This document shows positions 10,561-12,165 of a stretch of DNA of 64,000 nucleotides, in pieces; the first letter of the stretch is position 1; every line of letters starts with the position of its first letter. Location: NCBI RefSeq assembly GCF_057098645.1, contig NZ_CM169472.1, one strand, 5' to 3'. The notes under the pieces are model-generated. The model was not told where the DNA came from. It worked only from the letters and a program-made list of their open reading frames with translations, and ran no database searches. The position numbers were made by a program, and so were the translations under genes.

Positions 10561-10644
10561 TTATTCAATAAACTGACGGATCAGTTCCAGCAGCGCGATT
10601 AGCGCCTTAAGAACGATGAGAACTTTATCGAGAAAAGTTTTCAT
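10561..10644 (-). CDS. Candidate type I toxin, 27-aa TisB/DinQ-like small membrane peptide (MKTFLDKVLIVLKALIALLELIRQFIE)
   Basis: Hand-translated minus-strand ORF ATG(10644)...TAA(10561); GGGAG SD 6 nt upstream; amphipathic hydrophobic helix; core ALIALLELIR matches my recollection of DinQ; below the 60-aa cutoff of the ORF track. Confidence 0.55.
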   Translation of the reverse strand: MKTFLDKVLIVLKALIALLELIRQFIE

Positions 10645-10869
10645 CCGTTGCTCCCTTAAGGGAGAAAGACAATCACAGCTTACCCTTACGTTGCCTGTAA
10701 CTATGATTTTCTTCATGTGCTAGATGAGGACTGCCTCTCTCCAAATTAGAGCACCAGAATCAGCACCACCTGTATCCTGACCAGGACTTAAAAGTACTTT
10801 TCCGCACTGCGGTAATCCCTTGAGGCAGTATCACTACTAGCGTCGGGATTGTATCGCCAACATAGCTGT

Positions 10870-10898
10870 TTGAATATGTAGGCATCCTGACTTATAAT
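10870..10898 (+). promoter_or_regulatory. Near-consensus sigma70 promoter (TTGAAT-17-TATAAT) for the candidate antitoxin sRNA
   Basis: ttgaat at 10870-10875 and tataat at 10893-10898 with 17-bp spacer. Confidence 0.5.
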
Positions 10899-10904
10899 TC
10901 ACTT

Positions 10905-10990
10905 GCTAGATGAGGACTGTTTCATTTCTGCCCGGAACCACCAAGTCTTGGGCGGAAAAAATAAAAAAACCGACTGTCATGTCGGTTTTT
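10905..10990 (+). ncRNA. Candidate antisense sRNA (IstR/AgrB-like antitoxin), about 86 nt
   Basis: Starts about 7 nt after the -10; 5' end tgctagatgaggactg (10904-10919) is a direct repeat of 10718-10733, so it is complementary to the toxin 5' UTR; ends in hairpin ccgac-tgtcat-gtcgg followed by a T7 tract. Confidence 0.5.
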
Positions 10991-11055
10991 TTATATCTGT
11001 ATTCTGGTGCAACCATTCTGTTCTCACGACAATCGCCGTTTCAGAATACCGCCCA

Positions 11056-12165
<1,110 letters not shown>

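Follow-up and report, generated by a model that had tools for sequence, protein, structure and literature searches.

The stretch of DNA analysed here, referred to below as the window, comprises 64,000 nt of contig NZ_CM169472.1 (NCBI RefSeq assembly GCF_057098645.1). Between ybbP (7930-10344, plus strand) and mnmH/selU (11056-12150, minus strand), it carries a short minus-strand open reading frame for a DinQ-like (Dql) toxin together with a divergent gene for an AgrB-like antisense RNA (Table 1). The leader of the toxin mRNA contains, directly before the start codon, a small palindrome that includes the Shine-Dalgarno (SD) sequence.

Table 1. Coordinates of the features of the dql-agr locus, numbered from the first nucleotide of the window.
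Feature	Position	Strand	Basis and remarks
Terminator hairpin of the dql mRNA	10516..10544	-	Inverted repeat with 12-bp stem and short U tail; aligned with the dinQ terminator
Dql toxin ORF, 27 aa MKTFLDKVLIVLKALIALLELIRQFIE plus stop	10561..10644	-	NCBIfam match; start conserved in relatives
SD stem-loop, homologue of dinQ SL5 (3:4 hairpin)	10651..10664	-	Sequence, pair probabilities, homology, covariation; mRNA nt 178-191
SD stem-loop, 5' arm CUCCC	10664-10660	-	
SD stem-loop, loop UUAA	10659-10656	-	
SD stem-loop, 3' arm/SD GGGAG	10655-10651	-	
Sequence 3, GAUUGUCUUUCUCC	10661..10674	-	mRNA nt 168-181; would pair with the SD (closed) or with sequence 2 (open)
Antisense target site in the dql 5' UTR	10718..10741	-	Predicted duplex; mRNA nt 101-124
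Sequence 2, GGAGAGAGGCAGUC	10729..10742	-	mRNA nt 100-113; partner of sequence 3, would be masked by sequence 1 or the antisense RNA
SL2 block of the dinQ/dql 5' UTR, GUCCUGG...ACAGGUGGUGC...	10754..10787	-	Invariant columns in alignments A1-A3
Predicted 5' end and 5' strand of the S1 lock (sequence 1)	10822..10841	-	Alignment; pairs with mRNA nt 105-123 (10737-10719)
AgrB-like antisense RNA, putative antitoxin	10905..10992	+	Rfam RF02891; promoter and terminator scan

A dinQ-like gene and its antisense RNA between ybbP and selU

The 27-residue peptide matches the NCBIfam model toxin_DinQ (NF041472) with 40.9 bits against a cutoff of 30, whereas its score for DqlB (24.5 bits; NF041472/NF041473 pair of models) falls below the cutoff of 35; in contrast to a dqlB product, it therefore scores as toxin_DinQ. 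Alignment with 13 relatives places it in the class of small hydrophobic peptides (~23-31 aa) bearing the DinQ signature …LELIR…. In E. coli O145:H28 chromosomes in which this region is 100% identical, RefSeq annotates a 51-aa CDS (10561-10716, minus strand) as "damage-inducible type I toxin DinQ". This CDS, which spans the SD hairpin, is covered by the toxin_DinQ model only at residues 29-50. The start of the 27-aa frame is conserved across 14 relatives, but the in-frame extension upstream (the N-terminal 24 codons) is not, and most relatives have a stop 3-14 codons upstream, for which reason the 51-aa PGAP frame was rejected as the true product. Judging from these comparisons, the RefSeq CDS is probably over-extended and the conserved product is probably the 27-aa peptide initiated at 10644. 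The assignment of this peptide as a putative toxin rests on homology, namely the toxin_DinQ match, the RefSeq dinQ annotation and the adjoining Rfam AgrB match. Relative to K-12 dinQ, the window gene starts with ATG instead of GTG, and its peptide is three residues longer at the N-terminus.

Alignment to the mapped dinQ +1 predicts that transcription begins at G10841, with a TACAAT -10 box at 10853-10848. The predicted dql mRNA measures 327 nt (331 nt for dinQ) and has a 197-nt 5' UTR that shares 77% column identity with that of K-12 dinQ (L002), SL2 and SL4 included. A structured leader of the dinQ type (~190-200 nt) is thus present, as seen in alignments A1-A3 and in the predicted fold of the whole mRNA (z = -5.17 against shuffles). 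The dinQ leader family is absent from Rfam; in this region AgrB alone scores above threshold, and the remaining Rfam matches (STnc370, OrzO-P, mir-509 and others) stay below threshold and reflect terminators or chance.

With its dinQ-like 5' UTR, sigma-70 promoter, terminator, four pairing elements and small hydrophobic peptide, the locus resembles the dql genes (dqlA/dqlB) of Enterobacteriaceae chromosomes and plasmids, in which the N-terminus is likewise often annotated over-long. These dinQ-like genes were defined by Kristiansen et al. (2016, RNA 22:1739; PMC5066626); most of its 14 dql sequences are reported to have the same four elements. Unlike dinQ proper, which lies at gor-arsR and in K-12 is accompanied by agrA and agrB, the window gene sits between ybbP and selU with a single agr-like gene, the two promoters standing back to back, and it has no LexA box. 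A CTG-N10-CAG box is absent from 10780-10930, where the best LexA-like site matches 11 of 20 positions, and is likewise absent at the 12 other dql loci examined, whereas K-12 dinQ has CTGTATGATTATCCAG. LexA regulation of dql was rejected on account of this promoter without a box. The missing box and the ybbP-selU site together mean that the locus is to be filed as dql and not as an orthologue of the damage-inducible dinQ; because the box is absent, "damage-inducible" is probably a misnomer for the ybbP-selU copy. The probable over-extension of the CDS and this probable error in the product name are the practical corrections to come out of the analysis.

The dql-agr module is carried by ~1,290 of 5,426 complete E. 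coli genomes (about a quarter); ~1,260 E. coli records contain it intact, at an identity of 99% or more. When 10351-11053 is set against K-12 (L025 4838-12130), the flanking homology breaks off precisely at the stop codons of ybbP and selU. In K-12 the slot between these genes holds the 7.3-kb RhsD element (rhsD-ybbC-ylbH-ybbD-ylbG), and here it holds REP elements and the dql-agr module; the ybbP-selU intergenic slot is a variable hot spot. The REP/BIME-type palindromic elements lie at 10355-10470, between ybbP and the toxin terminator, and are overlain by sub-threshold Rfam matches to naRNA4 (36.6 bits) and ES036 (35 bits). It is because of these elements that a 711-nt query matched 5,425 of the 5,426 genomes, in many places. 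The module is also flanked by a 25-nt direct repeat, AAACCRACTGTCATGTCGGTTTTTT, whose copies (10490-10514 and 10967-10991, 477 nt apart) are 96% identical. The right copy is the agr-like terminator and the left copy lies just beyond the dql terminator; the repeat may be what is left of a second agr copy, or else a scar of recombination.

The antisense gene was recognised through a match of 10906-10994 to Rfam RF02891 (AgrB; 53.6 bits, gathering score 40, E = 1.2e-07). In the promoter and terminator scan it has a strong promoter at 10870-10898 (TTGAAT-17-TATAAT), and its terminator falls at 10961-10994. It begins 64 nt from the toxin +1, and the -35 regions of the two genes are back to back. 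The arrangement is therefore that of a divergent, non-overlapping AgrB-type RNA encoded 5' of the toxin gene and complementary to the sequence-2 region of its leader. The predicted duplex between the RNA and its target comprises 24 pairs with one bulged base (-47.7 kcal/mol), compared with -58.2 kcal/mol for agrB and -42.7 kcal/mol for agrA in the K-12 controls.

Several minor observations attach to the antisense gene. A 22-nt direct repeat on the plus strand, TTCAYKTGCTAGATGAGGACTG, occurs at 10712-10733 and 10898-10919, and connects the plus-strand copy of the target site (first copy) with the 5' end of the agr-like gene (second copy). The first copy is preceded by a TATGAT hexamer (10702-10707), uncalled by the promoter scan, which hints at a weak cis-antisense promoter. 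The agr-like terminator gives a weak Rfam match to OrzO-P (24.1 bits against a gathering score of 60). A 2024 study found one stretch within zor's 5' UTR to be 71-74% identical to the leaders of plasmid dinQ ORFs (PMC11264685); it also remarked that nobody had proposed an evolutionary connection between zor/orz and dinQ/agrB.

The Shine-Dalgarno hairpin and its predicted partners

On the plus strand, 10650-10664 reads g-CTCCC-TTAA-GGGAG, of which the perfect 14-nt palindrome occupies 10651-10664; the sequence-only reading of this DNA had noted the palindrome correctly but started it one base early, at 10650. In mRNA order the hairpin is followed by CAACGG and the AUG (10644-10642), the surrounding stretch being ...UUGUCUUUCUCCCUUAAGGGAGCAACGGAUGAAAAC.... 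The 3' arm is a well-spaced SD separated from the start codon by 6 nt. That reading had likewise taken the 3' arm for the SD and had placed the palindrome immediately 5' of the toxin start.

Taken by itself, the bare CTCCC-TTAA-GGGAG pattern is insignificant and occurs no more than by chance. The window contains 77 perfect inverted repeats with 5-bp arms and a 4-nt loop (~62.5 expected) and six perfect 14-nt palindromes (~3.9 expected). The hairpin alone is weak (-6.5 kcal/mol), and an isolated 35-nt segment around it gives z = -1.16, with 27 of 200 shuffles folding equally well. Because hairpins of this size are common by chance, the earlier suggestion that the palindrome independently supports the toxin call was overstated; what sets it apart from chance is its position, its homology and its covariation.

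Homology gives the palindrome a counterpart of known function. According to the work on K-12 dinQ (Kristiansen et al., 2016), the primary dinQ transcript is untranslated: pairing of sequences 1 and 2 creates the S1 lock, and sequences 3 and 4 fold into SL5 (C173-G187, CUCCAU-CGC-AUGGAG), which encloses the SD. In RNA lacking the first 43 nt (start +44), sequence 2 is freed and pairs with sequence 3, which opens the SD, and binding of AgrB to sequence 2 re-closes SL5. The evidence reported for this scheme comprises SHAPE, destabilising and compensatory mutants, S30 in vitro translation and the effects of agrB. The window hairpin resembles K-12 SL5 in its position relative to the start codon, its UCC/GGA core and the use of the SD as the 3' arm. 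One pair differs on both sides (A-U in K-12, C-G in the window), and the stem has 5 bp with a UUAA loop, as against 6 bp with a CGC loop in K-12.

The palindrome is thus very probably the SD stem-loop of the minus-strand dql type I toxin mRNA and part of a switch of the dinQ type. An SD stem-loop in the DinQ/Dql family is already described biology, found here in a paralogue that RefSeq annotates. The likeness to K-12 dinQ extends to the remainder of the switch, with a predicted 1:2 lock, 2:3 opener and 3:4 closer, an antisense RNA predicted to target sequence 2, and a homologous 5' UTR and peptide. In the primary transcript, sequence 1 (nt 1-20) would pair with nt 105-123 as a long S1 lock. 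Because S1 would then occupy sequence 2, sequence 3 would be free to fold onto the adjacent SD as CUCCC-UUAA-GGGAG, and binding of the 30S subunit would be blocked. Were about 45-50 nt lost from the 5' end, sequence 2 would be released, and its pairing with sequence 3 in a more stable 14-bp duplex would draw the 5' arm off the SD. The divergent AgrB-like RNA would pair with sequence 2, allowing the SD hairpin to re-form. By analogy with the K-12 dinQ experiments, the window transcript would be translationally inert until processed at its 5' end, and the AgrB-like RNA would act as its antitoxin.

Similar logic is found in tisB/istR-1, zorO/orzO, shoB/ohsC and hok/sok, which share an inert structured primary transcript, activation by processing and an antisense RNA acting at a distance from the SD; for tisB, zorO, shoB and hok these likenesses are analogies and not homology. 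In Kristiansen et al. (2016), tisB is described as keeping its SD closed after processing and using a standby site, and hok as relying on a 5'-3' fold-back and 3' trimming.

Folding of the full-length 327-nt mRNA is consistent with the closed state. P is 0.97 for the inner three pairs of the hairpin, the outer two being poorly supported (0.43 and 0.16); the S1 lock joins nt 1-5, 8-11 and 13-20 with 119-123, 115-118 and 105-112, respectively. Both elements appear in the minimum free energy (MFE) and centroid structures. Because the inner pairs are this probable and no SD base is more than 3% unpaired, the stem is favoured in its leader context, the outcome on which the proposal of an SD-occluding hairpin depended; that proposal is supported by the predicted full-length fold as well as by the positional and sequence homology to K-12 SL5.

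The alternative pairings also emerge from the models. The 14-bp duplex GGAGAGAGGCAGUC : GAUUGUCUUUCUCC has a predicted energy of -22.2 kcal/mol. In an RNA shortened to the +44 equivalent it reaches P = 0.79 while the SD hairpin drops to P = 0.2, and blocking nt 97-123, the antisense target, in the shortened RNA returns the hairpin to P = 0.99. The mutually exclusive pairings 1:2, 2:3 and 3:4, the last enclosing the SD, are thus all represented among the predicted folds.

The energetic cost of opening the SD does not separate the two states in the window mRNA (7.8 kcal/mol full-length versus 7.1 kcal/mol 5'-truncated), since UGCUCU at nt 89-94 takes up the SD in the truncated fold. The same metric gives no separation for K-12 (3.9 versus 3.5 kcal/mol), a positive control in which the switch is proven, and since it fails there, SD accessibility was rejected as a discriminating test of the processing switch. 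The probability of SL5 in K-12 is 0.87 in the full-length and 0.68 in the truncated RNA. Loss of the hairpin on truncation is predicted for only 3 of 14 family members, a comparison that is uninformative because K-12 is not one of the three. Given the failure on the K-12 control and this family-wide result, folding supports the hairpin of the primary transcript but cannot establish the opening step.

Conservation of the pairings across genera

The family sample consisted of plasmid dql/dinQ loci and loci found by a pattern scan, with one genome per species; the scan added Pantoea, Hafnia, Cedecea, Photorhabdus, Leminorella, Citrobacter, Buttiauxella, E. whittamii and Escherichia sp. (same dql). 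The SD hairpin is present in the local MFE fold of 18 of 19 family loci. Among 14 distinct members, the stem core (U-A, C-G, C-G) is invariant. The first pair inward of it is C-G in six members and A-U in eight, and the second is U-A (5), G-C (5) or A-U (1). Both pair types occur inside each peptide subgroup, which implies several independent changes.

Canonical pairs fill 95% of the stem cells in the 14 members; sliding the partner by 1-2 nt lowers this to 42-53%. Conservation extends to the 2:3 duplex (-16 to -25 kcal/mol): all 14 members pair at its first seven positions, four pair types are seen at one position, and 84% of its cells are canonical against 48-62% in the slid controls. These counts were anchored on the invariant UCC/GGA core and so favour structure, which the slid controls partly offset. 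The MAFFT alignment A3 was rejected for pair counting; since loop and spacer lengths vary, it left the hairpin arms out of register. The loops of relatives vary freely (CGC, AUA, UUUUA, CUUAU, AUCA and others), and the DNA palindrome is unconserved. That pairing is kept while the sequence of loop and palindrome is not argues for selection at the RNA level.

This analysis has little import beyond annotation; it confirms that an SD-sequestering hairpin of a type I toxin is recognisable from raw sequence. The switch model published for dinQ is carried over to the ybbP-selU dql paralogue, with covariation in several genera as additional support.

A few dinQ/dql loci come from assemblies with unexpected labels: Haemophilus sputorum, Lachnospiraceae MAGs, an 'uncultured bacterium' bin and Chryseobacterium (L008, L010, L014, L020 and L022). 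L020 is identical to a Citrobacter contig, and L010 shows no difference from K-12 dinQ in the part compared, which suggests contamination or mis-binning and not true hosts. In L008 the SD stem is broken and the SD itself damaged.

Alternative explanations

A variant of the dinQ-type switch, which we consider unlikely, would have three states in this SOS-independent paralogue, with the SD handed after 5' processing to the UGCUCU anti-SD. The hexamer (10748-10753, minus strand) is invariant in the family, BLAST-collected members included. In the truncated fold it pairs with GGAGCA (the SD plus 2 nt), over 6 bp here compared with 4 bp possible in K-12, and an in silico mutation of it makes the SD cheaper to open, at 5.3 instead of 7.1 kcal/mol. 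The models thus point to UGCUCU as a possible second anti-SD, of a length specific to the dql lineage found here. Translation may then depend on an additional step, for instance a second cleavage or ribosome standby, and the single AgrB-like RNA, its strong promoter back to back with the weak toxin promoter, may be the sole antitoxin.

Quite unlikely, in our estimate, is that the SD hairpin is a by-product, with control exerted elsewhere by standby of the tisB type, by a second anti-SD or by antisense-driven decay of the mRNA. Sequence 3 is complementary to sequence 2, which contains GGAG, and would therefore be automatically complementary to the SD; the invariant UCC/GGA core belongs to the 2:3 duplex as well and is uninformative on this point. 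The SD still paired in the truncated fold, to the conserved UGCUCU, fits such a reading, and a standby mechanism for dinQ is one that Kristiansen et al. (2016) state they cannot exclude. However, the loop-proximal pairs, which lie outside the GGAG core, covary in 14 of 14 and 11 of 11 informative cells, and dinQ mutants that close or open SL5 shift in vitro translation accordingly (Kristiansen et al., 2016). Both observations speak against the by-product reading.

That the palindrome is a chance repeat, or a relic without present function in a decaying, unexpressed locus, is very unlikely. The excess of same-size repeats over expectation and the modest local z-score reported above would accommodate it, as would the broken stem of the L008 relative, but the locus retains its ORF, SD, promoter elements, terminator and antisense gene, the module is intact and nearly identical in the E. 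coli records counted above, and the structure is kept across genera with compensatory changes. Finally, that the 14-bp palindrome, perfect as it is down to its TTAA centre, serves as a DNA operator for a dimeric DNA-binding protein and not as RNA structure is extremely improbable, given that it lies ~180 bp downstream of the predicted promoter and that relatives retain the pairing while losing the sequence and its central symmetry, a pattern that fits selection on the RNA.
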